DNA of 33,748 nucleotides from a virus: UHGV virus genome UHGV-0125592; one strand, given 5' to 3'. Positions 4,335 through 33,698 of this stretch are shown one piece after another. A program made the position numbers and the translations under genes. Under the pieces are notes generated by a model. The model saw only the letters and a program-made list of their open reading frames with translations. It was not told the origin of the DNA and ran no database searches. Every line of letters starts with the position of its first letter. The stretch's first letter is position 1.

Positions 4335-6851
4335 TTACCTCTGTTTTGTTGCATTCCAGATGATGCCGCCGGGCCGGACTTCTCTGGTGATACCTTCCCT
4401 GATGGAACTGTTGATCACCTGCTGATAGGCTTTCCCAAGCGCATCGCCGCTACCTTTCTGTTGACCGGAATCCCCCTGGCCTGTTGTAACCGAAACCGGT
4501 GCATACACGCTGACGCCAAAAGGAGAAGCAACGCCACCGCCACTCCCCCCGACCAGACCGCCAGTCGCATAACCACGCATCATGCGATAAAGGTTGCCGA
4601 CACCGATTCGGTTAGTGGCCTCCTGCGTAAAGACAAACTCTCCACGGTGCACCACACCTGCAGGCTCATACTTGCCGCCGGAGCCGGTATAACCACCGCC
4701 AGCAAAACCCAGCGCTGACGTGGCGGAACTGACCAGGCCAACCATGGCCTGCTTCATCAGGATCTGCGTCAGCATCGACAATGTGGAACGGGTGAAATCA
4801 GCCCAGTTTGCTTTCCCTGTCGTCAGCATATCGGCCATGTTCTGACTGATGCCATCGAATGTGGCTGAAGCAGCGGACTTCATCGAACCATAGGCATCAG
4901 CAGCTGAATCGGCATAGTCCGCCCAGGCGGATTTTGCCCCGGCCTGCCAGTCGCTACGGAGCTCATCCTGTGCGGCATAGTATTCCTTCAGCGCCGCCAG
5001 CTCGTTCTGATAGCCCTGATCGGAATCCGTTCCGCCGGCATTCATCCAGCCCTGCCGCAACTGCGCCTCTTCGTTTTGTCGCTGCGCACCGCGACTGCTC
5101 ATGCTGCCCCCGGCCACCAGCGCTCGGGTCTTCTCCCCGATCTTGGTAACGTACTTCTGCGAGCTGTCCTGCAGGCGGTTTAACCGCTCCTGGGCAACAA
5201 TCTGATCACCCAGTCGGGCATTCACTTCGGCCCGCGCCAGTACCTCGTCTTTGTTCGCCAGCACCGATTTTTCATCGGCGGTCAGCGCGCGCTTTTTGGC
5301 GGCCTCTTCCAGCACCGAAAAGCGGGATTGCTGTTTCCACAATTCCTGCCGCTGCTGGCTGATGGTATCCGTGATGCTCTTATGCTCCTGCAAAGTGCGT
5401 AACTGCGCCTCCAGCTCGAGCGTCTGCGCGCTGGCAGCATCGACACTTTTTACGCCTGCAGGTGTTTTCACTGCTGACGGCTTTTTAGGCTTCTTCAGTG
5501 AGTCGTCGTATTCCTTCTTAGCGGCTGCCATCAGAATGTTGTAATCAGCCTGGAGGATACGTCCGTCTTTGATGGCCTGATTATATTCTTTCTGTTTTGC
5601 CGTAAATTTATCCAAAGCTGATTCGGTCTTTGAATATGCAGCCTGCGCCTGCGCGGCATACTTCTGGCGATCAGACTCAATCACCGCCTCGCGTGCGGCG
5701 TTATCCTCAGTTGCCTTTGCCACACTGGCCTGCTGCTGCGCCATTTCCAGTGCAAGGCGTGCAGATTCCCGATCGTTCCAGTAGCTGGCGCGCGCATCAT
5801 CATTGACATAACCATCACCTTTACGCAGATTCCAGATTTCATCCGCCCGCTTAAAGGCCGCTTCAGCTTTGGCAACCATCTCCTGCGTGGTGTCAGGCCG
5901 GCCGATATCGAGCGCCGCATCCCACATCGATTTAAAGGCACGCTTCAGGCTGTCGGCAGCAGTCTCAATCGACCCCATATTGTCGCGCAGGCTCTTTGTC
6001 TGCTCACGAAAACCATTCGTCGCCGCATCATTAGCCGCCTGCAGCGCCCCGGCTTCATCCCCGGCACGTTGCAGCTGTGCCACATAAGCAATCTGTTCCG
6101 CTGTGACGTTATGGAACTGCTGCGCCATGGCAATCAGACCAGAGGTCGGATCGTTCGTCAGTTTGCCGAATGCCGCCGCCACCTTATCGACCGGCACACC
6201 CGACGCATCGGTGAATTTCGCTACCGCCTGACTCATATCATCGAACCGGGCACCGGCACGCACTCCGGCGTTAACCAGCTCCGTCAGCGCGTTGCTGGTC
6301 TGGTTAAACGTGAGTCCCGCCTGCTCGCCGGATTTCGCCAGAACCAGCATGCGGTTTGAGGTCAGCCCGGCAGTGTTTCCGGACAGGACCAGCGTTTTGT
6401 TGAAATCAGACAGCGTGGACGAGCCCTGATACCAGGCGTAAACCACCGCACCGGTGGCGGCTGCCAGCGCGCCAACCCCCACCATCACCGGCGATATGGT
6501 GCCCAGCAGCGCCCTGAAGGTCGGCATGATACCGCCGAAGGAGTCTTTAACCTGACCACCCTGCTGCAGCAAAATGAGCCATGGGCTTTGACCACCGGCC
6601 AGCTGGGTGGCGATATCCGTAAACTGCGCAGGCAGCATACGCATCGCGGCGTTGTACTGGCCTACAGAAATACCGGCCTTCTTCGCCGCGCTCTCCTGGC
6701 GGGTAAATGACTGCTGCACCTTCAGCGCAGAGTCATTCGCTGCGTCACCCGTCTGCTTAAACTGCCGTTTTACGTACTCCATCTGTTCGTTGAACTTTGA
6801 CGAGTTAACATCAAGGTTAACGACCAGGTCACCCACTGCCGTCTGGGCCAT
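4335..6851 (-). CDS. Tail tape measure protein (gpH-like)
   Basis: 838-aa Ala/Gln-rich coiled-coil protein with Gly-rich C-terminus, downstream of G-T as in lambda. Confidence 0.9.
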   Translation of the reverse strand: MAQTAVGDLVVNLDVNSSKFNEQMEYVKRQFKQTGDAANDSALKVQQSFTRQESAAKKAGISVGQYNAAMRMLPAQFTDIATQLAGGQSPWLILLQQGGQVKDSFGGIMPTFRALLGTISPVMVGVGALAAATGAVVYAWYQGSSTLSDFNKTLVLSGNTAGLTSNRMLVLAKSGEQAGLTFNQTSNALTELVNAGVRAGARFDDMSQAVAKFTDASGVPVDKVAAAFGKLTNDPTSGLIAMAQQFHNVTAEQIAYVAQLQRAGDEAGALQAANDAATNGFREQTKSLRDNMGSIETAADSLKRAFKSMWDAALDIGRPDTTQEMVAKAEAAFKRADEIWNLRKGDGYVNDDARASYWNDRESARLALEMAQQQASVAKATEDNAAREAVIESDRQKYAAQAQAAYSKTESALDKFTAKQKEYNQAIKDGRILQADYNILMAAAKKEYDDSLKKPKKPSAVKTPAGVKSVDAASAQTLELEAQLRTLQEHKSITDTISQQRQELWKQQSRFSVLEEAAKKRALTADEKSVLANKDEVLARAEVNARLGDQIVAQERLNRLQDSSQKYVTKIGEKTRALVAGGSMSSRGAQRQNEEAQLRQGWMNAGGTDSDQGYQNELAALKEYYAAQDELRSDWQAGAKSAWADYADSAADAYGSMKSAASATFDGISQNMADMLTTGKANWADFTRSTLSMLTQILMKQAMVGLVSSATSALGFAGGGYTGSGGKYEPAGVVHRGEFVFTQEATNRIGVGNLYRMMRGYATGGLVGGSGGGVASPFGVSVYAPVSVTTGQGDSGQQKGSGDALGKAYQQVINSSIREGITREVRPGGIIWNATKQR

Positions 6852-13466: not shown

Positions 13467-13684
13467 TCAAACCTCGCCAGTCGGTAACCGGGTCGCCCTC
13501 GGCGATGAGAAATAAGAGATGAGAGACGACGCTCCCACTCCTGCCGCCCTTTACGGATTTCCGACAGGTTCTCCATCGTCATTTCCTGCCCATTGAAACG
13601 GATAGTTTTGCCATCCAGTACCGCCATTTCGGCTTCGGTATATCGCTGGATCATGGCTTCAATATCGACACGGTTCACAACCAT
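13463..13684 (-). CDS. Head-tail connector / head completion protein W
   Basis: Small protein ending RRGRPGYRLARFE, like the C-terminus of lambda gpW; start uncertain (ATG 13684 or 13654; the track start at 13702 is TTG). Confidence 0.6.
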   Translation of the reverse strand: MVVNRVDIEAMIQRYTEAEMAVLDGKTIRFNGQEMTMENLSEIRKGRQEWERRLSSLISHRRGRPGYRLARFE

Positions 13685-15777
13685 CCTCCTGAAGTTCTCC
13701 AAGGGTTAGCATCATTGGTTACGGGCTTTTTCCGCTTCCTTTTTTTGGTGGGTACTGGTTCTGGTGTCTGGGATGACACTTCGCCAGCTTCCGACGGCGC
13801 GTTCTCCAGCCAGGTTTCCCGCCTCGCCCACTCAGGAGCAGCGGGCCATTTGATTTTCTCGTAGCCGTGGAGAATGGCGAGCGCATCTGCGTAGACCAGC
13901 AGGTCAAATGCTTCGTTTGCACCACGTCCAGGCTTACTCCATTTGCCATCGGTCGATCGCTCCTCATAGGTCAGTTCATCGTAAAACCAGCTGCCGAGCC
14001 AGTCAGGGAAATGCACATAGCCAGGGCCTGGTGAATCACGCCACAAAGCGTTGTTCACCCGGTCTTTCAGAGCATCGGTCTGGATCAGATAAAGCGGGAC
14101 GTCACCAGAAGCCTGTGCCCGCCGGCTTGAACGTCCGGTATTATCAGGAAAGGTTCGGGAGATGAGTTTTGATCGGCGGACACTGTCGCCTTTGAACAGA
14201 TAAACCTGTTTTCCTAGTCCCTCCCGACGGCACTTACGCCAGAATTTATAAGCGTTGTCGGTCACACCATCCTCACCGCCGGAGTCAACGGCCATCGCCA
14301 TCAGCCGCATACACCGGGTCGGATCCGATGCCAATGGCCAGGCTTTGTTAAACGCATCGGTCAGCAATAAATCCCAGTCTTCCGGATAGCTTGCCGGGTC
14401 AATCTGCTGGCTCTCACCATTGGCGTCATGGCGCATCGACTGCCGGATGTTGTAGCGGTCCACCAGCCAGCGCTCTCCCATGCTGCCGTAACCAGTAATC
14501 TGAACAACAAAACGCCGGTTGCGCCCCGCCTGAACGTCGACGGTCGCCATAAGAAAACAAACCCCGTCCGGAACAGAGCGCTTTGGTACATCCTCCGCAC
14601 GCTGCTCAAGCAGTTCACTTTTACGCTGCTCCATGCTGGATCGGGGAAGGTACGGACGCCCAAAGTCTGTGTTGATTACCGTCTTCAGTGCTTCCTCGCT
14701 GCCGGTGGCCTGATAGTCCTGCTCGGCAGTAAGAAATTTATAGATGAGCTGCGCCCAGGTCTGGTACGCGGCGGCAGGTCCTTCCATCCAGAAGGAGGCA
14801 ATGCGCGAGCGGCGCCCTTCTCCAGTGATAACACCATCGCTGTCGATGGTTTGCCCATCGCGTAGCCACACGCCTTTCATATTCAGCGAACGCTTCATAT
14901 CCGGCGTGATGTGATCTTTACAGGCAGGGCATTGAAGACTCGCTTTCTCGCTGGCCTGAACAGGGTCTGCGATATCGCGATAACCTGTCATGTTGTCCAT
15001 TTCAGGCTGGAAATATTCACCGCAATGTGGGCACGGCCAGTAAAGGCGACGGCGATCACCACGGTTGTACAGCGCCAGAATCCCCGTTGAGGGAGGTGCT
15101 TCATGCGGTGAGCTACGGCGCCATTTTGTGTCACGTATATCGCGGCCCGGCGAACTCTCAACCAGTGTCATACCTGATGACATGAACGTTGTGGTTCGCT
15201 TTGATGCCAGTGAAAAGGCGTCACCTTCCCCGTCAATGTCTTCCGGGAAACGGTCATAATCGGTCAGTGCCACGCATTTATAGTCCGATGAGGACATAAT
15301 ATTGACCGATGGCCAGCCGATTTTCAGGTAGTTCCCGGCACGAAACGTGCGATCATATACGTTGTTATCGTTACGCCGCGGGCTCAGTCGGGATTTCACT
15401 TCAGGGCTGCAACGGAATGTACGATCAAGACGCTTTTTGGAGTGCTCGCGCGCCTTTTCCTCAGTCATCTGAATCAGGAGCATATCAGCCGGATCACAGA
15501 CAACGTTGTAAACAATCCAGCCATCAATCAGACCAATGGTTTTACCGGTTCGCGCCGGACCAACAAACACCACCGCGTCATATTCACGTGATGCCAGACA
15601 GTTCATCGGTTCAATCACGTAAGGTGCCAGATCCGGATCCCATGGAACGGAGTTACCCGCCCCCATTGGCACGCGCATATAAGTACTGACCGCATCGGCC
15701 ACCTGCATTCGACGCGGGGCACGTAAGATACCGGAAACATCGCGGCGGATGCCTCTGGCTGATGCCCGCTTTGCCAT
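13675..15777 (-). CDS. Terminase large subunit (gpA family)
   Basis: 700 aa; Walker A motif GPARTGKT; ATGA overlap with the small-subunit stop. Confidence 0.9.
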   Translation of the reverse strand: MAKRASARGIRRDVSGILRAPRRMQVADAVSTYMRVPMGAGNSVPWDPDLAPYVIEPMNCLASREYDAVVFVGPARTGKTIGLIDGWIVYNVVCDPADMLLIQMTEEKAREHSKKRLDRTFRCSPEVKSRLSPRRNDNNVYDRTFRAGNYLKIGWPSVNIMSSSDYKCVALTDYDRFPEDIDGEGDAFSLASKRTTTFMSSGMTLVESSPGRDIRDTKWRRSSPHEAPPSTGILALYNRGDRRRLYWPCPHCGEYFQPEMDNMTGYRDIADPVQASEKASLQCPACKDHITPDMKRSLNMKGVWLRDGQTIDSDGVITGEGRRSRIASFWMEGPAAAYQTWAQLIYKFLTAEQDYQATGSEEALKTVINTDFGRPYLPRSSMEQRKSELLEQRAEDVPKRSVPDGVCFLMATVDVQAGRNRRFVVQITGYGSMGERWLVDRYNIRQSMRHDANGESQQIDPASYPEDWDLLLTDAFNKAWPLASDPTRCMRLMAMAVDSGGEDGVTDNAYKFWRKCRREGLGKQVYLFKGDSVRRSKLISRTFPDNTGRSSRRAQASGDVPLYLIQTDALKDRVNNALWRDSPGPGYVHFPDWLGSWFYDELTYEERSTDGKWSKPGRGANEAFDLLVYADALAILHGYEKIKWPAAPEWARRETWLENAPSEAGEVSSQTPEPVPTKKRKRKKPVTNDANPWRTSGGWL

Positions 15778-16265
15778 CAGTCCTCCTCTGGCTCTTCCTC
15801 CTCTGCTTCAGCATCCTGTACCCTCTCCGCCATCTGATCGCGCAGGTCATCGATAACGCTCTGCACGCGAGAAACCGCAACGGGCGTTAATGCACAGTCA
15901 CGCTCAAGTACATCAGGGAGGGTTTCAAGTACCATGACGACCGCTTTCGCCATCAATGAGAATTCGCGCGCAACTTCATCGGCGGGAATCAGTTGCCCCG
16001 TGTCCTGCTCGAACTTGAGGCGCTCATTCTCCGCTTTCCAGTGGGAAAGCCTGTCCGATGGCGGCATGTCATCGATATTGGCTGACACAGTGGGGATCAT
16101 CAGTTCGGTCAGAATGTCGGTGATCAGGTAAAGCTTTAATTTGCTGTTGCTACCTGGTGCCGGTTCAATATTTTTCAGCCTGGCGGCAACCGTCTGACGG
16201 TGTACGCCGGTGATCCCCGCCAGCTGGTTGATGTTCAGTTTTAAAGCGGCAATTTCCTGGTCCAT
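15777..16265 (-). CDS. Terminase small subunit (Nu1-like)
   Basis: N-terminal HTH (MDQEIAALKLNINQLAGITGVHRQTVAARL) resembling lambda Nu1, acidic C-terminus; sits directly downstream of the cos-like sequence. Confidence 0.7.
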   Translation of the reverse strand: MDQEIAALKLNINQLAGITGVHRQTVAARLKNIEPAPGSNSKLKLYLITDILTELMIPTVSANIDDMPPSDRLSHWKAENERLKFEQDTGQLIPADEVAREFSLMAKAVVMVLETLPDVLERDCALTPVAVSRVQSVIDDLRDQMAERVQDAEAEEEEPEED

Positions 16266-16379
16266 GATGGTGAACACTTTTTAAACGATTCGACATCTGC
16301 ACGAAATCGCCTCTAATGAGATCAATAACCTGCGCAAATGATGATGATGATGACCTTAGATCCGAAAAACTAGCCATTT

Positions 16380-16722: not shown

Positions 16723-17150
16723 TACCAAAACTCCTTTTATCAAAGAGATACCATGATAACCCCATGAATTATTTAGTAAAGCATGATCACAGACACTCAG
16801 TGAATGTCTGCTGTAACGCCTACTCAGTCGAGCTGTAGAACACCATGTTCTTCTGATTCAAAGTATGCAATAAGCATGCTGTATTCGGGGATGATACTAC
16901 CGTCATCAACTCCGCCTTTACATGTTGGTTTGTGGCAATTTACTTTTTATAGTCAAGCATCTGTCACTAAGGCGACATACTTTGAGTGCGCTTTGCTACA
17001 TTGTAAAATTTTCAGCAATGAGGCACATTAGATGTTCAGATGAAACTGTAAGTTCTTGACTCGGGCCGGATGATTAAATCATAACTTTCATTACACTTTG
17101 AGTAATCAATCTCATCCAGCATAGTTAAGCCCTGTTGATAAGGAATGTAT

Positions 17151-17570
17151 ATGGCAATTAAAATCATTGGTGGAAATATTAGTGGTAATGGTGGTGATGG
17201 CATCCATGTTGGGGATGGATTTGATATAGAGGTTATAGGCACCAAAATCACCGATAATCATCGTGATGGAATTCATGTCGCAAGCCCTAATACGAATGTT
17301 AGCATTCAAAATATTGAATGTTTCGGTAATACAAGAGATGGAGTTCATGTTGCTATAACAATGCAAGATTTAGTTAATGCTGGGTTGAAAGAAAATATAC
17401 CACAAGAAGAACTAAACAAGGCACAAAAGGTCATAGTTGAAAACACAAACAAACCACTTATAAAAATAACGTCCGCATTAAAAGGAATAGGATTCTGTCG
17501 CTGGATCACAAAAGGTTCAGAACTAGCAACAATTACGTCTCTTTTAATTCAGCTATTCACAAAAAATTAG
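17151..17570 (+). CDS. Hypothetical low-GC protein with three DGIHV beta-helix-like repeats
   Basis: 139 aa from ATG 17151 (AAGGA 6 nt upstream); repeats GDGIHVGDG / RDGIHVASPNTN / RDGVHVAIT; AT-rich relative to flanking phage genes; opposite strand to the late operon. Confidence 0.45.
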   Translation: MAIKIIGGNISGNGGDGIHVGDGFDIEVIGTKITDNHRDGIHVASPNTNVSIQNIECFGNTRDGVHVAITMQDLVNAGLKENIPQEELNKAQKVIVENTNKPLIKITSALKGIGFCRWITKGSELATITSLLIQLFTKN

Positions 17571-17839: not shown

Positions 17840-18364
17840 CTACTTTTTCATTTGTTCAGTCACTCTGTTATTTGACTCTCTCACCGAGTCGTAAACTCGC
17901 TCACACGTTATTCCAGCTCGGTAGCTTTCGTCAGATCGCTCAGCATAATATCGAGCTTCTTCTGCAAGGCGTCCGAGCATGTCGGCGAGCACTGCGGCGG
18001 CGGATCCGGCTGTTTTGCTTCTGACGGCAGCGGCAAGATCTGAGGTGTGCTTTGCGGCGTCCAAGCGGGCGGCAAGCTTTGTTGCTTCGGTGCGCAACTG
18101 GCTAACAGTGGCAGACAGGCCAGCAGCAGTGGCAGCAGATTTAGCGGCTTGTGCTTGTGCATCTTTTACAGCCTCATCACGGGCAATTATGCGCCCTTGC
18201 TCAATCATGCGGGCGGCGGTCTGCGCGTTCGCTGTTTGCGATGATTCCGCGCTGTCACGGTCAGCCCACTTCTTTTCCCAGCCGTGATTGCTCCATACGT
18301 TTCCGGCGATGAATGCGACAGCCACTAGCATCAAAATAACAATGAACTGATAGTGCAGGTTCAC
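17840..18364 (-). CDS. Rz-like i-spanin
   Basis: N-terminal TM helix ([15 protein letters not shown]) then Ala/Gln-rich coiled coil; follows the endolysin; probable GTG start overlapping the endolysin stop (GTGA). Confidence 0.7.
17908..18162 (-). CDS. Rz1-like o-spanin lipoprotein embedded in Rz
   Basis: Lies entirely within Rz in another frame; signal peptide with lipobox LLASC, Pro-rich mature part. Confidence 0.6.
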
Positions 18365-18909
18365 TTGTCTATCCCCCAGCACGTCAGCCCGCTTTCCTGG
18401 TCTCGTCGTTCAACCTGTCCGTAGCAGCCGTTTTTCTGGCCTTTGGTCAGACGGCAATCGCGGCCACCGTCTTTAATCCACCAGCGGATCGCTTCACAAG
18501 CTCCTTTTCGGTCGCCAGCATTGATCCGTTTGTAGAAAGTGGAAGGGAAGCATTTTCCGGGACCGATGTTATAAGGGCAGAAAGAAGCGATACCCGCTTT
18601 CTGAGGTTCACTCAGCGGGACTTGGATATTTTTCTCTACCCACGCCAGCGCCTTGTCGCGTTCTATGGCGTTCACCTGGGCGCATTTCTCAGCAGACAGT
18701 TTCATGCTCTGAACTACTGGCTTACCGTCAACCATCGTGGCGCCACGGCAAATGGTCCACACTCCGCCGCCGTCGCGATATGCCGTCAGGCTGTTACCCT
18801 CTTTCTCATCCAGAAACTGATCGAGAATTACAGGTGCGGAAGCCCCAGCAAGAATCAAACCAACTACCGCTGCACTCAGTTTATTCTTCAGCTTTGGTGA
18901 CATTGCCAT
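18361..18909 (-). CDS. SAR endolysin (GH24 T4-type lysozyme, RrrD-like)
   Basis: Catalytic E-x8-D-x5-T motif ([16 protein letters not shown]); N-terminal weakly hydrophobic signal-anchor-release segment ([17 protein letters not shown]); GGAGG ribosome-binding site. Confidence 0.85.
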
Positions 18910-19159
18910 TAAGCCGGTCCTCCCTTTCCTTTTTCCTGTAATACCAGTTCACTGCACAGGTGATAACCGTGCATGCGATACCGACAATAATTGCCCAGTC
19001 GCTCAGGCTTAACCCTGCAATTCTGTCGGCCAACATCCAGGACACCTCTTTTGCTGTTTTAGCTGTTTCGGCGTATGCCTTCGCTGATACACCGCAGCCG
19101 GTCAGCGTGGTGCCTGTTCCATATGAAAGTCTGCTGTAAATGGTGCTCATTCTGGTCAT
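18881..19159 (-). CDS. Pinholin-type holin (S21-like) with dual start
   Basis: MTRMSTIY... has two Met codons separated by Thr-Arg (antiholin/holin pattern); Gly/Thr-rich TMD1, hydrophobic TMD2, charged C-terminus; GGAGGTGAGG ribosome-binding site; overlaps the endolysin start. Confidence 0.7.
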   Translation of the reverse strand: MTRMSTIYSRLSYGTGTTLTGCGVSAKAYAETAKTAKEVSWMLADRIAGLSLSDWAIIVGIACTVITCAVNWYYRKKEREDRLNGNVTKAEE

Positions 19160-19263
19160 AGCCTCACCTCCGATAGTACGGATGGCGCTGTGTGTGATGA
19201 AAGGGTCAGGCCCTCGGGCTGGATTTAACAACGAAGCATGTCGATGATGATTCCCGTGAGCCT

Positions 19264-19294
19264 GAAATAGAAAAGGCCACGCAAATGCGCAGCC
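19264..19294 (-). terminator. Intrinsic terminator (tR'-like), copy A, upstream of the holin
   Basis: Minus-strand transcript GGCUGCGC-AUUU-GCGUGGCC forms an 8-bp stem using two G-U wobble pairs, followed by UUUUCUAUUU; forms only in the minus-strand transcript. Confidence 0.55.
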
Positions 19295-19352
19295 TGTAAC
19301 CAGAAATCAATATTGTCTTTACATCAATTTTTCTTAAGGTTAAATTCTTCTG

Positions 19353-19428
19353 ACAAGTTGATGAAAGACAACTTGAATATTAGCTATTTGTTCTCTGTTA
19401 TGCCCGCAACCCAATGCGGGCTTTTTTT
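19353..19428 (+). ncRNA. Candidate small RNA (about 75 nt) antisense to the late transcript
   Basis: Promoter-like TTTACA (19318-19323), 17-bp spacer, TAAATT (19341-19346); internal hairpin CAAGTTG-ATGAAAGA-CAACTTG; strong terminator GCCCGCA-ACCCAA-TGCGGGC + TTTTTTT (19402-19428); no ORF. Confidence 0.4.
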
Positions 19429-19551
19429 CGCCCTGCTAAAAGTTCCACCGTTGTGAGCCTTTTTGCTATGCAATAATGGATGCGTGGTGCCGGGTGTCTC
19501 CCGGTGATCCTTTGGCTGACAACCCATGCCTCACGAACATTTCACAACGGG

Positions 19552-19581
19552 ATATAGAAAAGGCCGTGCATTTGCATAGCC
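19552..19581 (-). terminator. Intrinsic terminator, copy B (imperfect duplicate of copy A)
   Basis: Minus-strand GGCUAUGC-AAAU-GCACGGCC hairpin (one mismatch) followed by UUUUCUAUAU; shares the flanking motif ATAGAAAAGGCC...AGCC(C)TGAAA with copy A. Confidence 0.45.
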
Positions 19582-19602
19582 CTGAAAGATGTTTATGCTT
19601 TA

Positions 19603-20100
19603 TTAATTCGCTGGAATATCTGGCATGGCGCGATCCATAGAAGAGCTAATTAACGCCTTAATAGCGTTGCATACCTGATAAAATCCACCCAGCTGAGATG
19701 AGACAGAAAAACGGGAGACGTCGTCTCCTGAGCCTACTTCAGCATAAAATGATGAGTTCTCATACCAGAGTGAGATGCTTACGCCCTGCCTGTAGCCACC
19801 TGTTAGCGGAGAATCATCAAGAGTGGTTGCAATCACGAAATTCAAGTGGTAACGGCTGTCCATATTGAGTTGGGGGATTAAGACAGGAAAGAACTTCCCC
19901 TCCTCCTCCCAAATACCAATGTCCACATAAGGCCATCTTGTTCCGTCAGAACCAGTCCACTCACGAGATGTAAGATCAAGAGAACCTGAATACTCTCGTA
20001 GTAGTTCGCTCGCCTTCTCCTGAAGTTTATCCTGTAACTTCCATTGCGCCTCGACCAGTTTAGTGCGTTTTTCTTTCAGATCCTTAAATGTTAATTCCAT
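19603..20100 (-). CDS. Hypothetical protein (cargo, low GC)
   Basis: 165 aa from ATG 20100 with GGAG ribosome-binding site (MELTFKDLKEKRTKLVEAQWKLQ...); no recognisable motifs; divergent from the adjacent plus-strand operon. Confidence 0.5.
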   Translation of the reverse strand: MELTFKDLKEKRTKLVEAQWKLQDKLQEKASELLREYSGSLDLTSREWTGSDGTRWPYVDIGIWEEEGKFFPVLIPQLNMDSRYHLNFVIATTLDDSPLTGGYRQGVSISLWYENSSFYAEVGSGDDVSRFSVSSQLGGFYQVCNAIKALISSSMDRAMPDIPAN

Positions 20101-20183
20101 GCCACTCTCCAGACAACTTTTGAAAGGAATCTGCATAGTAACTCACCCTGAAAGCACATGGTTATATTTCACTTACACTGAGT

Positions 20184-20220
20184 GCGAAAAACAAAAACCC
20201 CACCATTTCTGGCAGGGCTT
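20184..20220 (-). terminator. Possible terminator upstream of the 165-aa gene
   Basis: Minus strand: GC-rich imperfect hairpin (CCCTGCC...GGTGGGG) followed by TTTTTGTTTTT. Confidence 0.3.
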
Positions 20221-20349
20221 CGATTGTTAAGCTGTGTGTCGAAGTGACCACTCTTAACACGTTACATTACTTTTTGCGGACCGCAATAATGTTTTTTATT
20301 ATTAAAACAGGTATTTTATGGAAAAAAATCAAACCATAGCGAGCAAATA

Positions 20350-21219
20350 GTGACCAATACTACTTCTTTTCAGATCTTCTATGATGCAGAAGACACTGAA
20401 TTGGCACAGCATAAAATTGATGCAAAAACACTTAGCATTTCCATAGGTTCTATGGCTGATTTAATTTCAGCCGCCGATAAACGGCTTAACGACGGTCAAC
20501 AAACTGTGAAGTTGATGGTGACAAACCCGGCCGAGGCTGGCTCTCTCGGCGTATCCTATACGATGATGGAACTTGTCCCACATGCAATCAATGTTGCGAA
20601 AGTGATCGGATTGACAGGGTTAGCCGGCGCAGCAATTGGTGCACCTGCATTATCGTTAATTCGACAGTTGGGAAGTAAGAAAGTCATTTCCATCACGAAA
20701 CGAGCAGGTACAAACCAATCCGTTCTTGAGCTCGAAGGTGAAGAGATTGTTTGTCATGATTCTGTAGCAAAGCTAGTGACTGATCCAGAAATTAGGAATG
20801 CTTTAGTGAACGTTGTGCGCGCACCTTTAGACGGGAAAGAAGGCGCAGTGTTCAAAGTTCTGAATGAAGACGGTATCGAAGTCGTCCGCCTGGAAGGTGA
20901 AGAAACTGAGGAAATAAAACCACTTCCCAGGGGCACTTTGCTGGAAAAAGAAGAATCAGTGGAAGAAGTAAACGTAAGATTCGTCCAAATAAACTTTGAA
21001 GGAACAAAAGGTTGGAGGATTGAGTACCTCGGAGAGGAACATGCAGTTTCGTTTGAGGATCAACTTTTTATACATCAAGTCCAAAATGGGATCGTTAGTT
21101 TCACCAAAGAAGATTTGTTTGTCGTTGACCTCAAAACAACAAAAACTTTCACTGCACGTAATGCTTCAACCAAGTATGCTATAACCAAAGTTAAGCGAAA
21201 ACGCCCTGCTGAGGCTTGA
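20350..21219 (+). CDS. Hypothetical membrane-anchored protein, first gene of a three-gene cargo operon
   Basis: 289-aa ORF (GTG start at 20350; first in-frame ATG at residue 35); central hydrophobic segment INVAKVIGLTGLAGAAIGAPALSLI, acidic C-terminal half; low GC; preceded by a 10-codon mini-ORF whose stop overlaps the GTG. Confidence 0.5.
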   Translation: MTNTTSFQIFYDAEDTELAQHKIDAKTLSISIGSMADLISAADKRLNDGQQTVKLMVTNPAEAGSLGVSYTMMELVPHAINVAKVIGLTGLAGAAIGAPALSLIRQLGSKKVISITKRAGTNQSVLELEGEEIVCHDSVAKLVTDPEIRNALVNVVRAPLDGKEGAVFKVLNEDGIEVVRLEGEETEEIKPLPRGTLLEKEESVEEVNVRFVQINFEGTKGWRIEYLGEEHAVSFEDQLFIHQVQNGIVSFTKEDLFVVDLKTTKTFTARNASTKYAITKVKRKRPAEA

Positions 21220-21275
21220 TTAACGTGGCATTAAACTTGCAGATAGCGCAACTGATCTTCTGGATAGGAGTGATT

Positions 21276-21485
21276 ATGATCATTCCTACCTTTAGTCGTT
21301 TCTGCTATTCGGCATCTGCTTTGCTATGGCGTCGATTGTTTCCTACCAGGACCTTTGAGTTCCGGTATCACGATGAAGATACTGGTACAACTAAAACACT
21401 CATAGTTAAGGTGCCAAGAAAAAACGGCAAAATGCTTACCAGCCTTATTGATGAGGCTATTTCGGAGAATTCAAAACCAAAATGA
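21276..21485 (+). CDS. Small hypothetical protein, second gene of the cargo operon
   Basis: ATG at 21276 with GGAG 8 nt upstream; 69 aa; an upstream TTG start would add a hydrophobic N-terminus; stop overlaps the next start (ATGA). Confidence 0.4.
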   Translation: MIIPTFSRFCYSASALLWRRLFPTRTFEFRYHDEDTGTTKTLIVKVPRKNGKMLTSLIDEAISENSKPK

Positions 21486-21904
21486 GTTCTCAAAGTAAAG
21501 GTTTAAGTACTGGAAAAGCGACACTTTCCACTGGTGGTTGGGGAGCAATACTCAGCGTTTTAGTTGGTGCAGTTCTTACAGACCCCAACAGCGTGTGGAG
21601 GACGGTTGCTTATGCCCTTGTGCCTGGTGTTGCTGCTGTCCTTACCTACGTGATGAATTGGTTCATTTCTAGGCATGGGTTTGAATCACCAGAAGATGCA
21701 GCTAAACGAGCGAAGTGTAAACGAGATTTAGCTGAGATCGAAAAACAGCTAAGCTCAGAGCATTTAACCCCTGAAATTGAAGCCAGGCTGATGCAGGCAA
21801 AGGCCAAGACAATTGAAATACTCGTTTCTATTGGCAGCGACTCTATCCTTGAAGCCTCATCACGTTCGAGCCAACTACCAGATACTGCCGGGCCTCAAGG
21901 CTAA
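21482..21904 (+). CDS. Two-TM membrane protein with C-terminal coiled coil, third gene of the cargo operon
   Basis: 140 aa; two hydrophobic helices (GGWGAILSVLVGAVL and VAYALVPGVAAVLTYVMNWFI) then a charged helical tail; translationally coupled to the preceding gene. Confidence 0.5.
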   Translation: MSSQSKGLSTGKATLSTGGWGAILSVLVGAVLTDPNSVWRTVAYALVPGVAAVLTYVMNWFISRHGFESPEDAAKRAKCKRDLAEIEKQLSSEHLTPEIEARLMQAKAKTIEILVSIGSDSILEASSRSSQLPDTAGPQG

Positions 21905-21926
21905 CCGGCAGTCTTGATTTTAACAA

Positions 21927-22295
21927 TCAATCATCCATGTCAAGTCGAATATCAAGCATAGCCAAACATCCGTCTATAAATCCTTCTGCCATCTGTATCT
22001 CGATGCGTATCAATTTCTCATCTTTTTTACGCGCTTTCGCAATCTTCCTCTTAGATATTCCGTATAGGTAGTGGGCAACAAGAAGTGAATGCTCATATGG
22101 TTTTCGGTTTTTCAATCGCGCCAGGCACCCTTCGATGATCAGCGCATCATCGTCAGTACAAGACGGTCGGGAGCTACCTATTTGCGGCAACAGCCCTTTA
22201 AATCCTGCAGCTATAGGAGAATAGTCCACGCCAGAACTATCACTGGCAGCCCACCCGCCCCATCTTTCGAGTAACATTTGAATATCACGCATCAC
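21927..22295 (-). CDS. Late-gene antiterminator Q (small Q family, QuuD-like)
   Basis: 122 aa; MMRDIQMLLERWGGWAA...IAAGFKGLLP...SRPSCTDDDALIIEGCLARL...AEGFIDGCLAMLDIRLDMDD matches the conserved pattern of the DLP12/phage-82-type small Q proteins. Confidence 0.75.
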   Translation of the reverse strand: MMRDIQMLLERWGGWAASDSSGVDYSPIAAGFKGLLPQIGSSRPSCTDDDALIIEGCLARLKNRKPYEHSLLVAHYLYGISKRKIAKARKKDEKLIRIEIQMAEGFIDGCLAMLDIRLDMDD

Positions 22296-22309
22296 TTTTC
22301 TCCATACAC

Positions 22310-23338
22310 TTAAGCTTTCGCAATTACGCCGATCGCCAGCGCCCGATCCATAAAACGCAGTAGCAGCTCAAGCTGCGTACCATGCTTCTGCTCGAATGCT
22401 GGTACATCGGCGTGTAACTCGTCGTGGCACTCTCTGCACAGAGGGATCACGAAGAGGTCATGGGCTTTTGTTGCTGTACCACCCATACCGTGCCCTACGA
22501 TATGGTGCGGATCATCTGCTGGCCGTCGGCAACACTCACAGGGTTGTGTTTTTACCCAGCGGGTGTAAGTCTCATTTATCCAGCGGCGTCGCTTTGGCCT
22601 GAGCATGAAAGATTCTGGAGATTCCGGATCAACAGAGAGCGTGAGGATCTTCTTCGCCTTCTCCTGCACGAGGCTGGTTGCAGACGCTAAAGGCACAATG
22701 TCGCTTTCCCTCATGACAGAGCGGATGTTCTCATCCGGAAGGCGCAGCCCTTTGTGAGCAACGCTTTCCGGAATAACATCAGCCAGGTCGTTTCTGACCA
22801 TCCACCAGCACAGTTCCGGAAGCGTCAGGATATGCGACTCGGGAAAACCAGAATCACGCCGAATGACTTCCAGAATCCAGGATACCAGGTTTCCTGCCGC
22901 TATACCTGCAAGCTGTTCGGTATGCTGCCCCGACAAAGTGTGATCGCAATGCCAGCACAGGCGAATGCTTCCTGGTGGGTGCCGCATTGTTGTGAAGTTC
23001 TTGTCGTGCCACGTTGAATGTGGCCACTGGCATTCAAACCGATTACTCAGCCATTGCTCAAGGGAAGGAAGCCCGCCGGCACGCTGAATAATCCTCTCAT
23101 TCTCGAAGACCTGACGCATTACCGGATCATCAGCCAGCGGCTGAATGGCTGCCGGAACAGCCCCGGTACTGAATGACGCCATTTCTTCTGGTTCAGGCTC
23201 GAGCAGAACGCGACCACGCATGAAGAGGTGCATCAGCTCCGCACCAGGACGGAACAGCACAATCCCCATACGATGGGCGATCTCGGGGGTAAGCAGAGCT
23301 TTCACGCGACCTGCCCCCTGGCAATGTGTTCTGCCCAC
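22310..23338 (-). CDS. DUF968-like protein (YdfU-like) with C-terminal HNH-like Cys/His cluster
   Basis: 342-aa ORF; C-terminus CECCRRPADDPHHIVGHGMGG...CRECHDELH; start uncertain (internal Met codons at 23269 and 23230 possible). Confidence 0.55.
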   Translation of the reverse strand: MGRTHCQGAGRVKALLTPEIAHRMGIVLFRPGAELMHLFMRGRVLLEPEPEEMASFSTGAVPAAIQPLADDPVMRQVFENERIIQRAGGLPSLEQWLSNRFECQWPHSTWHDKNFTTMRHPPGSIRLCWHCDHTLSGQHTEQLAGIAAGNLVSWILEVIRRDSGFPESHILTLPELCWWMVRNDLADVIPESVAHKGLRLPDENIRSVMRESDIVPLASATSLVQEKAKKILTLSVDPESPESFMLRPKRRRWINETYTRWVKTQPCECCRRPADDPHHIVGHGMGGTATKAHDLFVIPLCRECHDELHADVPAFEQKHGTQLELLLRFMDRALAIGVIAKA

Positions 23339-26597: not shown

Positions 26598-27149
26598 TTA
26601 TTTCTCCATACTCGAAGAGTTGTTCGCCAAGGCGCCCGGAGCTGCACACTCGCGGGCGTCACTCTTTTCAGCGACACAAAAAACTCGATAAAGAAGCGTT
26701 ACGTGCTCCTGGAACTTCGCGATAACCTGATAGCTGTTTTCCTCAATCTGAGCACGCTCATCTGCGTCAATTACCCCATCAGCCGTGGCTTTACGTACAA
26801 AATTAGAATGACGACCTATCCATTCGATTGATTCCATCAGCCGCTGGTTGATATCGGCATTATCCAGATCATCAACATCTGCCAGCGGTACAAATACGCC
26901 CTGAGAATGGCGCGCAACGGCATCAGCGATATGGGTTGAACCACCAGCACGTTGTAAAACCATTGCCCAGCCCAGCGGGAAGATCTGGTCGCCATCAATA
27001 CGAAGGCGGTTAAACAATGCGTTCTCTGTCACGCCCAACCATTCCGCCGCCTCGGCATAACCGCCATGTAGATCGGTGATCGTTTTTTTTATCGCCGCAA
27101 CCAGCCAGGCTGGCTGGCGTTCGACTTTCCAAATAGGTTCGTTACCCAC
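26598..27149 (-). CDS. CII-like phage regulatory protein (CP76/YdaT-type architecture)
   Basis: 183-aa ORF immediately downstream of the cro-like gene, the position of lambda cII/ydaT; family assignment is from sequence pattern only. Confidence 0.5.
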   Translation of the reverse strand: MGNEPIWKVERQPAWLVAAIKKTITDLHGGYAEAAEWLGVTENALFNRLRIDGDQIFPLGWAMVLQRAGGSTHIADAVARHSQGVFVPLADVDDLDNADINQRLMESIEWIGRHSNFVRKATADGVIDADERAQIEENSYQVIAKFQEHVTLLYRVFCVAEKSDARECAAPGALANNSSSMEK

Positions 27150-27467: not shown

Positions 27468-28127
27468 ATGAAAACAGAGATGAAAGACCGCATCAGATCC
27501 AGACGAATCCAGCTGGATATAACCCAACTAGCACTGGCTAAAAAGCTTGGTGTAAGCCGTGTATCGGTTACAAAATGGGAAAACGGCACGACTAAGCCTG
27601 ATGGTGAGAACCTTCACCAGTTGGCTCAGGCTCTATCAACAACACCAGAGTGGATACTCTATGGAAGCGGTGATGAGGTCATTGACGACACGCGCGTCGT
27701 GCCTTTTTTGAAACCCCCTGTAGCTGTACCGATCATTTCGGCAGTTCAAGCCGGTTTATGGACGGAAAGCTATGCCTGCTCAAGACTTACAGACGTGATT
27801 TCCTGGACTCAAACAACTGCAAATGTATCGGATGAAGCGTTTGGGTTAGTAGTCCGCGGGGAGTCGATGACTAACCCGCAAGGACTTCCATCTATACCTG
27901 AAGGTTCTATTGTTATAGTCGAGCCCCATTATGGGCAGCTTGATGATCTATATGGGAAAATAGTTGTTGCTATTTTGGATGGGACTTCAGAAGCAACGGT
28001 TAAAAAATTAGTTTGGGATAGCCCCTACTCATACCTAATGCCACTAAATCCGTTATTTAAGCCAATCCAAATTGATGGCAACTGTCGCATTGTCGGAAAA
28101 GTTGTACAAATCACTCAAAACATCTAA
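27468..28127 (+). CDS. cI: CI-type prophage repressor (HTH plus S24 LexA-like autopeptidase domain)
   Basis: N-terminal XRE-type HTH (LDITQLALAKKLGVSRVSVTKWENG), C-terminal S24 domain with Ser (GESM) and Lys (TVKKL) dyad; start codon abuts an operator, suggesting leaderless translation as for lambda cI. Confidence 0.85.
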   Translation: MKTEMKDRIRSRRIQLDITQLALAKKLGVSRVSVTKWENGTTKPDGENLHQLAQALSTTPEWILYGSGDEVIDDTRVVPFLKPPVAVPIISAVQAGLWTESYACSRLTDVISWTQTTANVSDEAFGLVVRGESMTNPQGLPSIPEGSIVIVEPHYGQLDDLYGKIVVAILDGTSEATVKKLVWDSPYSYLMPLNPLFKPIQIDGNCRIVGKVVQITQNI

Positions 28128-32384: not shown

Positions 32385-33698
32385 ATGGATAAAGTCACAT
32401 ATCCAACAGGCGTCGAAAACCACGGTGGCACATTACGCATCTGGTTTAATTTTAAAGGTAAGCGTGTCAGGGAAAGTCTCGGTGTCCCTGACACCTCTAA
32501 GAACAGGAAGATAGCCGGGGAACTGCGGACATCAGTATGTTTTGCCATCCGCACAGGAACCTTTGATTATGCAACCCAGTTTCCTGACTCCCCTAACCTC
32601 AAGGCTTTTGGTGTAAGTAAAAAAGACATTACAGTAAAAGAACTTGAAGAAAAGTGGCTGGATCTGAAACGGATGGAAATCTGCGCGAACGCATTCAATC
32701 GCTATGAGTCTGTCGCAAGGAATATGGTACCGAGGATCGGAGGTAATCGCCTGGTGTCAGCAGTAACCAAAGAGGAATTGCTGTATCTCAGGAAAGATTT
32801 GCTAACTGGTTACCAGAATCCGACGAAAAACAAATCCCCGGCAAAAGGGCGAAGCGTTGTTACTGTGAACTATTACATGACGACAATGGCCGGAATGTTT
32901 CAGTTTGCTGCGGATCACGGTTACTTAGAGGTGAACCCATTCGAGGGAATTAAGCCTCTGAAAAAAGCCAGGGCAGAACCAGATCCTCTTTCTCGTGATG
33001 AATTTATTCGCCTGATAGATGCATGCCGGCATCAGCAGACTAAAAACCTGTGGTCATTAGCAGTGTACACAGGAATGCGTCACGGGGAACTGGTCTCCCT
33101 GGCCTGGGAAGATATCGATCTGAAGGCGGGAACAATTACCGTCAGGCGTAATTATACGAAACTTGGTGAGTTCACTCTACCGAAAACCGAGGCAAGCACA
33201 GATCGAGTGGTGCATCTTATCCAGCCCGCAATCAGTATCCTGAAAAATCAGGCTGAAATGACAAGGCTGGGCAGGCAACATCGCATTGAAGTTCAGTTAC
33301 GTGAGTATGGCCGTTCGGTGAACCATGAGTGTACATTCGTCTTTAACCCGCATGTGGTCAGACGCAGTAAGCAGGTCGGATTTATCTACCGGGTCGATTC
33401 AGTAGGCGACTCCTGGGAAGCGGCACTAAAGCGCGCGGGGATCAGACATAGAAAGGCGTACCAGTCACGACATACCTATGCGTGCTGGTCATTATCTGCT
33501 GGTGCAAACCCGAGTTTTATTGCCAGTCAGATGGGGCATGCGAGCGCGCAGATGGTGTTCAATGTTTACGGTGCATGGATGGCTGACAGCAGCGCAGAGC
33601 AGATCGCAATGCTCAATCAGAAGCTGGCAGATTTTGCCCCATTGATGCCCCATAGCCACGAGAGCAGTACGGGAGGATTATTAAAATCAGTAAGTTAA
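32385..33698 (+). CDS. int: Tyrosine recombinase / phage integrase
   Basis: 437 aa; N-terminal arm-binding region; catalytic core residues R (TGMRHGEL), H-x-x-R (SRHTYAC) and Tyr (MVFNVYGAWM); GGAGG ribosome-binding site. Confidence 0.85.
   Translation: MDKVTYPTGVENHGGTLRIWFNFKGKRVRESLGVPDTSKNRKIAGELRTSVCFAIRTGTFDYATQFPDSPNLKAFGVSKKDITVKELEEKWLDLKRMEICANAFNRYESVARNMVPRIGGNRLVSAVTKEELLYLRKDLLTGYQNPTKNKSPAKGRSVVTVNYYMTTMAGMFQFAADHGYLEVNPFEGIKPLKKARAEPDPLSRDEFIRLIDACRHQQTKNLWSLAVYTGMRHGELVSLAWEDIDLKAGTITVRRNYTKLGEFTLPKTEASTDRVVHLIQPAISILKNQAEMTRLGRQHRIEVQLREYGRSVNHECTFVFNPHVVRRSKQVGFIYRVDSVGDSWEAALKRAGIRHRKAYQSRHTYACWSLSAGANPSFIASQMGHASAQMVFNVYGAWMADSSAEQIAMLNQKLADFAPLMPHSHESSTGGLLKSVS

Follow-up and report, generated by a model that had tools for sequence, protein, structure and literature searches.

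A conserved three-gene cassette beside antiterminator Q in a Citrobacter freundii lambdoid prophage: a candidate membrane-acting anti-phage system in a slot of alternative cassettes

In phage lambda, the genes rexA and rexB sit directly downstream of the repressor gene cI and are co-transcribed with it in the lysogen. RexA is a cytoplasmic protein of 279 amino acids (aa), RexB is a polytopic membrane protein of 144 aa, and on infection they collapse the membrane potential. Here we describe a three-gene operon, called ABC, from the viral genome UHGV-0125592; the whole stretch of DNA analysed (33,748 nucleotides, nt) is referred to as the window. Like RexAB, ABC is prophage-encoded and combines a predicted soluble protein of approximately 290 aa with small inner-membrane proteins. 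Its placement is also alike: in the window ABC lies on the strand of the cI-like repressor gene, an orientation rightly described as lysogen-compatible by an earlier, sequence-only reading of this DNA, and ABC triads of Pasteurella and Pseudomonas type lie directly behind such a repressor gene. Unlike RexAB, ABC has three genes instead of two, and its membrane part is split into one protein with a single transmembrane (TM) helix and another with two. No sequence or profile similarity of ABC to RexAB was found with Pfam, PADLOC and NCBIfam, and a fold search with A returned no match. We lean, with modest confidence, towards ABC being a lysogen-expressed, membrane-acting anti-phage system. The interval between the antiterminator gene Q and the holin gene, in which it resides, consists of two independent accessory units split by a candidate late-promoter/terminator element; the second unit is a single gene, D.

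The genes of ABC form an autonomous and conserved operon. Among the loci fetched, 66 encode A (53-100% identical to that of the window), and in every one of them A, B, C and Q occur in the same order and orientation. The association reaches beyond this range. In a context without Q, an A with 35% identity is still accompanied by a one-TM gene of 80 aa and a two-TM gene of 131 aa, the latter with a polar tail, B and C being beyond BLAST detection at this level of A identity. Versions of A at 28-31% identity, located in the same phage slot, have different partner proteins, of 81-82 aa with one TM and of 128-132 aa with two. In contigs obtained with a Pseudomonas query (L199-L203) and a Pasteurella query (L204-L205), A (297-356 aa), B (77-87 aa, one TM) and C (121-127 aa) are encoded by genes with overlapping stop and start codons, directly downstream of the cI-like repressor gene and in the same direction. 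The triad persists in these Pseudomonas- and Pasteurella-type phages at 30-35% identity, and altogether it occurs in phages of four bacterial families. A scan of genome contigs recovered two loci only, and a scan with P0139 found nothing.

Two single loci deserve mention. A contig labelled Vagococcus sp. WN89Y, a Firmicute (L015, NZ_JBQPOM010000057.1), contains a lambdoid prophage of enterobacterial type in which ABC (A 77% identical), Q and DUF968 are present; the label probably reflects contamination or a mislabelled assembly. In one Pseudomonas-type contig (L202, 5099-6499), a KAP-family P-loop NTPase (PF07693, 3e-31) directly follows the ABC triad and is missing from the relatives L199 and L203, so that in such phages this region beside the repressor is a small variable defence-like cluster.

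Protein A has already been catalogued, as a PADLOC candidate, an NCBIfam family and a PHROG, and is uncharacterised. It matches the PADLOC candidate PDC-S42 (model PDLC05015) end to end, residues 4-287 aligning with profile positions 3-292 of 302 at E 2.7e-31. It also matches the NCBIfam family NF053583 (LAPAL_fam) with 203 bits at a cut-off of 60, as well as phrog_3243. The claim of the sequence-only reading that the four genes between Q and holin have no recognisable family therefore fails for A, and likewise for D, which matches phrog_5091. Pfam gave no match for A or B and sub-threshold matches only for C and D (E 0.09-0.4). PDC-S42 is listed as a single-gene candidate. Since B and C always accompany A, in all 66 loci as well as in the distant homologues, this label is too narrow. 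A profile search with A gave 1,854 clusters at 50% identity (E <= 1e-3), 676 at E <= 1e-10. Their members are nearly all 285-310 aa long, are found for example in Pseudomonas, Aeromonas and Pasteurella, and are all annotated as hypothetical; judged from these approximately 1,850 clusters, the family would span Gammaproteobacteria. Homology of A to two single-gene cassettes with a central hydrophobic segment (c172 and c5) was considered and rejected, as profile-profile comparison with hhalign found none.

The AlphaFold2 model of A (pLDDT 81.5, pTM 0.71) depicts an alpha/beta protein, and A is accordingly modelled as mainly soluble. From this, the composition of the operon is not all-membrane, as had been supposed. 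The central hydrophobic helix attributed to A fared only partly better. A hydrophobic, Gly/Ala-rich stretch is indeed present at residues 86-104 (Kyte-Doolittle 1.74), but the model shows it as a low-confidence loop and a short helix, and no confident TM helix is predicted.

The full name of the NCBIfam family, 'LAPAL motif-containing putative phage structural protein', and its almost complete confinement to phage contexts would suit another explanation, namely that A is a structural or morphogenetic protein while B and C are accessory membrane proteins of lysis or assembly. However, close relatives that share Q, the element and the lysis genes lack the cassette or carry a replacement, and ABC is transcribed against Q and the late genes in the window, is co-oriented with the repressor in other lineages, and never lay, among the loci read, within a cluster of head or tail genes. 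Because the cassette is optional, has the wrong orientation for a late gene and is repressor-adjacent in other lineages, this explanation is contradicted and we regard it as highly improbable. The curated name itself is contradicted by the context of A.

The middle protein, B, had been taken to be 69 aa long. Alignment of homologues showed that residues upstream of the assumed ATG are kept, and these form an N-terminal TM helix (hydropathy peak 2.06); B is thus 86-89 aa long, with one N-terminal TM helix followed by a small cytoplasmic domain. Protein C possesses two TM helices, seen as two hydrophobic peaks, a conserved RHGxESP motif and, at the C-terminus, a polar tail that is likewise conserved and probably helical. 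The two TM helices ascribed to it and the polar tail were thereby recovered, while the sole indication of the proposed coiled coil is a sub-threshold match to PF15188. All homologues of C are annotated as hypothetical.

The junction of B and C is an ATGA overlap, and A and B either overlap by 4 nt or are 5 nt apart, depending on the start of B. These arrangements support the translational coupling of the three genes, as had been suggested. Downstream, the operon ends in a candidate intrinsic terminator whose hairpin (Table 1) has a predicted RNA folding energy of -18.2 kcal/mol (z -2.85) and lacks a T-run in the opposite direction. Upstream of A, promoter-like hexamers were found by a scan (GTTACA-18-AATAAT) and by eye (TTGCGG-17-TATTAT at 20274-20302). 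A promoter of ABC at 20261-20302 is a weak candidate, proposed from these consensus matches. A ten-codon upstream open reading frame (uORF; MEKNQTIASK, 20318-20350, plus strand) runs into the start of A, its TAG stop overlapping the GTG. The ATG equivalent to that of the uORF is in frame with A in a homologue of 300 aa from E. coli (P0002).

The slot occupied by ABC has two conserved flanks. One is Q and the other is a non-coding element with the motif CGCA-N10-TA-N3-TGWTAAGAGTGG. The element core was found in at least 120 IMG/VR viral contigs and in 88 GenBank phage records, including Stx phages. Filled slots numbered 78 after removal of redundancy and represented 31 gene architectures of one to three genes each. 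Orientation was close to uniform, 151 of the slot open reading frames (ORFs) of at least 70 aa being antisense to Q and one sense. ABC itself was present in seven of the hotspot loci, and distant versions in four more.

Among the alternative cassettes, known defence systems were recognised. A sister phage (L080) carries a complete Kiwa system (KwaB 2.3e-150, KwaA 1.9e-83) in the same slot and orientation. Kiwa is similar to ABC in being a small operon that encodes a membrane protein and a soluble protein of approximately 300 aa. It differs in gene number and TM topology, and none of A, B and C matches KwaA or KwaB with the same models that detect Kiwa in L080. DS-1 was identified by NF053868 (452 bits, cut-off 330), a model that NCBIfam names as an anti-phage protein, and more distant versions occur in the Klebsiella phage P7641. 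The DefensePredictor study (PMC13092281) counts DS-1 among its numbered DS systems. PADLOC candidates in the slot comprise a PDC-S20 KAP NTPase, an HEC-04-like ATPase with a C5 methyltransferase, and PDC-M53. Further slots hold a RelA/SpoT-like protein with a YejK-like protein, or a pair resembling HicAB, as judged by eye from the sequences (L093). Many cassettes encode a soluble protein of approximately 300 aa together with a multi-TM one of 150-190 aa, and most have no match in Pfam, NCBIfam or PADLOC.

The slot is likewise used by well-known toxin- and serotype-converting phages, whose antisense cassettes comprise two or three genes and lie a short way ahead of stx1, stx2 or the holin. Phage Stx2_EH2201 (L194) has an empty slot, with the element abutting the stop codon of Q and followed by an ORF, a methylase gene, tRNA genes and stx2AB. 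Phage Stx2a_1447 (L198, 1883-3446) has the same layout, the sole difference being an antisense cassette of 179 and 343 aa between Q and the element. In the Stx1a phage Stx1_14040 (L195, 833-2940), an antisense cassette of 220, 130 and 350 aa precedes the element and stx1AB, and in phage cdtI (L197, 1549-2937) an antisense cassette again lies between Q and the element. None of the cassettes of the Stx and cdtI phages matched PADLOC. In the Shigella phage SfII (L196, 1352-2966), the antisense pair is the PADLOC candidate PDC-M53A/B.

With two conserved flanks, mutually exclusive short cassettes, known alongside unknown systems and a uniform orientation, the slot resembles known phage defence hotspots. 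It differs in residing in lambdoid phages and in its flanks, Q and the post-Q element, so that the hotspot would separate Q from the element that we take to be its target promoter. The general kind, a prophage defence cassette of sensor and membrane effector in a hotspot, is already known. The obligatory triad, its Rex-like placement and the Q/element hotspot reaching Stx, SfII and cdtI phages appear to be undescribed: the literature searched, which was covered incompletely, contained no description of a Q-linked hotspot, of PDC-S42, of LAPAL or of Kiwa in lambdoid phages, and the Tai (PMC11364771) and HepS (PMC13043305) papers had no bearing on the subject.

The proposal that the cargo serves exclusion or abortive infection is thus supported for A, B and C, which are accessory cargo and share their slot with validated defence systems of sister phages, and does not extend to D, which is not a partner of ABC (see below). 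In favour of an anti-phage role speak the fixed triad, the hotspot with known systems, the match to PDC-S42, the location on the repressor strand and the operon's own terminator-like hairpin. Several points weigh against it or against the accompanying assignment of the element as the late promoter PR'. The members of ABC are known from sequence alone. PDC-S42 is a computational candidate only, unmentioned in the literature searched, and NCBIfam labels the family of A as a putative phage structural protein. Since no TM helix is modelled at the hydrophobic stretch of A, how this protein relates to the membrane is uncertain. Cargo other than defence systems, for example methyltransferases and toxin-antitoxin-like pairs, is also found in hotspots, and the counts given above overstate independence because many IMG/VR loci are near-duplicates. 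As for the element, a promoter scan of its minus strand gave no sigma-70 match of at least 9 of 12 positions, and no good -35 hexamer was seen upstream of the invariant TAnnnT, either with the scanner or by eye; the PR' assignment is for this reason positional.

If the anti-phage interpretation is correct, the following mechanism can be envisaged. ABC would be transcribed in the lysogen from its own promoter and would act on other phages. A would serve as a soluble or peripheral sensor or regulator, whose Gly/Ala-rich stretch might touch the membrane or the TM partners, and B and C, with one TM helix and with two TM helices and a polar tail, respectively, would constitute the inner-membrane effector or anchor. 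Upon infection, the complex would either compromise the membrane, an abortive response as in lambda RexA/RexB, or block DNA entry, i.e. superinfection exclusion; of the two, we consider the Rex-like abortive mechanism likely and exclusion at entry distinctly less so. Upon prophage induction, early rightward transcription through Q would proceed antisense over C, B and A, and the cassette might thereby be damped.

Two other roles of ABC have to be weighed against these data. ABC might be a lysogenic-conversion module, in which an inner-membrane complex alters host physiology (envelope stress tolerance, transport, colonisation) as a fitness moron. Its membrane association, the lack of detectable enzymatic domains and the orientation would all agree with this, and the neighbouring late slot does carry non-defence cargo such as stx, a TAXI-like binding protein and methyltransferases. 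On the other hand, the antisense slot is shared with Kiwa, DS-1 and PADLOC candidates, and the family of A is itself flagged by PADLOC. Moreover, a phage-directed function fits better than a host-specific one because the triad spans four families with different hosts and envelopes. We therefore consider a conversion module unlikely. ABC could also be an addiction module akin to toxin-antitoxin (TA) systems, a membrane toxin (B and/or C) being checked by A to stabilise the prophage. Small TM proteins tightly coupled to a larger soluble partner, together with the HicAB-like pair in the same slot of L093, would be in line with this. It is nevertheless rather improbable, as no similarity to known TA families was found in Pfam, NCBIfam and PADLOC, and three conserved genes exceed the needs of a TA pair; TA and abortive-infection functions are in any case not mutually exclusive.

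Should ABC be a defence system as we favour, a large uncharacterised three-component membrane family would join the prophage immune repertoire. The hotspot is simple to search, with Q on one side and the invariant motif on the other, and its approximately 31 cassette types provide a candidate list for screening. In Stx1a and some Stx2a phages, the slot is filled just upstream of the element preceding stx. Since it lies between Q and this element, cassette content could influence phage competition and toxin regulation. A broader generalisation is held more tentatively: the Q/post-Q-element junction may be a widespread, undescribed defence hotspot of Enterobacterales lambdoid phages (Stx1a, Stx2a, SfII and cdtI included), its approximately 30 cassette types being mostly unknown immune systems and ABC a new three-component abortive or exclusion system of the membrane, RexAB-like without kinship.

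The element that closes the slot is part of the 213-nt intergenic region between A and D, which holds a block conserved in all related loci, whatever their cargo. On the minus strand it comprises, in order, an inverted repeat GCGGTCCGC (or GCGTACGC), a 10-nt spacer, TAnnnT, G, W and TAAGAGTGG. Past TAAGAGTGG, a semi-conserved stretch is followed by a GC-rich hairpin of variable sequence with a T-run. The core pattern occurs once in the window and matched in none of 100 shuffles. No other conserved non-coding block lies between Q and the lysis genes, and a megablast search of 19300-22300 against phage and E. coli collections found only the element, as a 110-nt match, and not the cassette. Assignments of -35, -10, Q-binding and pause elements within the block, attempted by eye and with the scanner, were unconvincing.

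In all 96 loci holding both Q and the element, Q lies upstream on the same strand. The gap between them is 14-58 nt in 16 loci, where the stop codon of Q is a TAA or TAG directly before the inverted repeat, and 637-2915 nt in the other 80. A hairpin with a T-run follows the element in 92 of 108 non-redundant loci, compared with 18 in reverse-complement and 16 in shuffled controls, and the hairpins represent 61 different sequences. In the standard layout, Q is followed by PR' with its Q-binding and pause site, then by a terminator and then by the late genes (10.1101/651190; PMC7547250). Because its position, its conservation and the terminator fit this layout, the element points to PR' and tR', and from its position it is probably the late promoter. 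The sequence-only reading placed ABC antisense to late transcription. This is probably not the case, since the element, which abuts Q in empty-slot phages, sits beyond the cassette as seen from Q (20305-20194); ABC would be crossed solely by early rightward transcripts that continue through Q.

In cassette-bearing phages, Q ends in ...LDMDD* (window 21927-21960, minus strand) and is approximately 15 codons shorter than in empty-slot phages (e.g. L079, L113), while approximately 20 nt that resemble the old 3' end of Q persist beside the inverted repeat. Recombination in the tail of Q and in the element may accordingly be the way in which cassettes are exchanged. A different rearrangement was observed in E. 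coli MLI104K1 (L013, 4001-4292), where a Q pseudogene fragment and the element lie downstream of two tRNA genes and a different Q of 229 aa; this locus is a mosaic, with one late-control cassette behind another.

Beyond the terminator, the logic is reversed. The first ORF there is in the sense orientation in 64 of 77 loci and is often the holin gene itself. With antisense ORFs before the candidate PR' and sense ORFs, such as D and stx, after the terminator, two adjacent accessory slots of opposite logic can be distinguished. Comparison of the Q-holin interval across related prophages, as had been advised, consequently revealed the variable accessory cargo expected, distributed over two separate slots and not one. 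In Klebsiella prophages (L001-L006, 4813-5658; L007-L012, approximately 4341-5420), the post-terminator slot holds a TAXI/NMT1-like solute-binding protein or an N6/N4 DNA methyltransferase, and some of these loci contain an Acb2/Tad1-like anti-defence gene further downstream.

In the window, the second slot is occupied by D, which on the late strand is the first gene past the terminator and points in the same direction as Q and the lysis genes. The protein is acidic and, as previously described, soluble, with no hydrophobic peak. The length of 165 aa given for it may need revision to 177 aa (start at 20136), because an N-terminal extension of 12 residues is conserved in 14 of 24 homologues. 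Searches in Pfam, PHROG and further sources revealed no similarity of D to toxins or to any characterised family. By its place past the terminator, on the late strand and before the holin, D resembles stx and its companions (PMC7547250); it is unlike them in lacking toxin similarity, and the likeness concerns D only, not ABC. Given this position, D would be expressed only when Q acts.

The sequence-only reading treated the four genes as one island; on such a model, ABC would have in D a regulator, an immunity protein or a partner. The genes are indeed adjacent, diverge around the intergenic region and have a low GC content in common (0.41-0.47, against 0.53-0.57 in the DUF968 gene, the lysis genes and terminase). 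The low-GC block nevertheless also takes in Q (0.458), and the intergenic region is the conserved element of all related phages, whatever cargo they hold. D was present in only four of the 66 ABC loci, all near-identical to the window, while L017, L022 and L045 have ABC 100% identical and no D. In L017, the element is directly followed by two terminators and the holin. Because these hairpins are adjacent there, the window carries an insertion of approximately 0.9 kb (D and its 3' region) between 20221-20194 and 19295-19274. Conversely, in Yersinia prophages a D homologue is the first gene on the late strand between Q, of PF03589 or PF06530 type, and the holin, without ABC. A single island can hardly be reconciled with this distribution, and we judge D, from these comparisons, to be an independent moron of the late operon.

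The remaining features are listed in Table 1. The window is a lambdoid prophage of Citrobacter freundii, and A (289 aa) is 100% identical to a C. freundii entry. All four ORFs reported earlier between Q and the holin are present, the two boundary genes being identified by PF06530 and PF16080. Comparison of Q with Q21 structures (PDB 6p18/6jnx) gave E 5.5e-5, which makes it a distant relative of Q21 by sequence. The true start of the holin is probably an ATG near 19159.

Table 1. Coordinates of genes and candidate signals in the window
Feature	Position	Strand	Remarks
Terminase	13675-16277	-	
Holin, lysozyme and spanin block	17840-19231	-	
Lysozyme	18361-18909	-	
Holin	18881-19231	-	PF16080 1.1e-13, phrog_20; end of accessory interval
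Second terminator-like hairpin, upstream of holin	19274-19295	-	-14.9 kcal/mol, z -4.3; kept in many related loci
Hairpin with T-run just past D	19557-19585	-	near copy of holin-proximal hairpin; -11.1 kcal/mol, z -3.0
Gene D	19603-20136	-	177 aa, or 165 aa from ATG 20100
Candidate tR' terminator of short leader transcript	20194-20221	-	GC-rich hairpin and T-run; -17.8 kcal/mol, z -3.6
Conserved non-coding element	20226-20305	-	80 nt; other conserved flank of cassette slot; candidate PR'/Q-loading region
5' region of ABC operon	20261-20350	+	promoter-like hexamers and uORF
Gene A	20350-21219	+	289 aa, GTG start
Gene B	21225-21485 or 21216-21485	+	86 aa (GTG) or 89 aa (TTG)
Gene C	21482-21904	+	140 aa; ATG overlaps B stop codon
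Candidate intrinsic terminator of ABC operon	21885-21921	+	CTGCCGG/CCGGCAG hairpin and T-rich tail; overlaps 3' end of C
Antiterminator Q	21927-22295	-	122 aa; PF06530 E 3.9e-53; one conserved flank of cassette slot
DUF968 gene	22310-23338	-	
cII-like gene	26598-27149	-	
cI-like helix-turn-helix/S24 repressor	27468-28127	+	
Integrase	32385-33698	+	

Some minor observations concern the DNA around D and the lysis genes. An Rfam scan gave a single, sub-threshold match to STnc100 (19430-19669, minus strand; 31 bits against a gathering threshold of 47, E 6e-4), located outside the ABC cassette, and no tRNAs were found. The stretch spans the 3' end of D and the DNA downstream, and holds a well-matched CACCGGGAG...CCCGGCA hairpin. 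On the plus strand at 19318-19428, in the DNA separating D from the holin, a promoter-like TTTACA-17-TAAATT is followed approximately 55 nt on by a strong terminator (GCCCGC...GCGGGC and T7); this site could possibly encode a small antisense RNA of approximately 75 nt. Finally, an antisense ORF of 141 aa with a GC content of 0.35 lies between the spanin and small terminase genes (17145-17570, plus strand). Its product matches PF13229 (right-handed beta-helix, 1e-6) and is hydrophobic at the C-terminus, and the ORF is likely another moron, just upstream of the packaging module.

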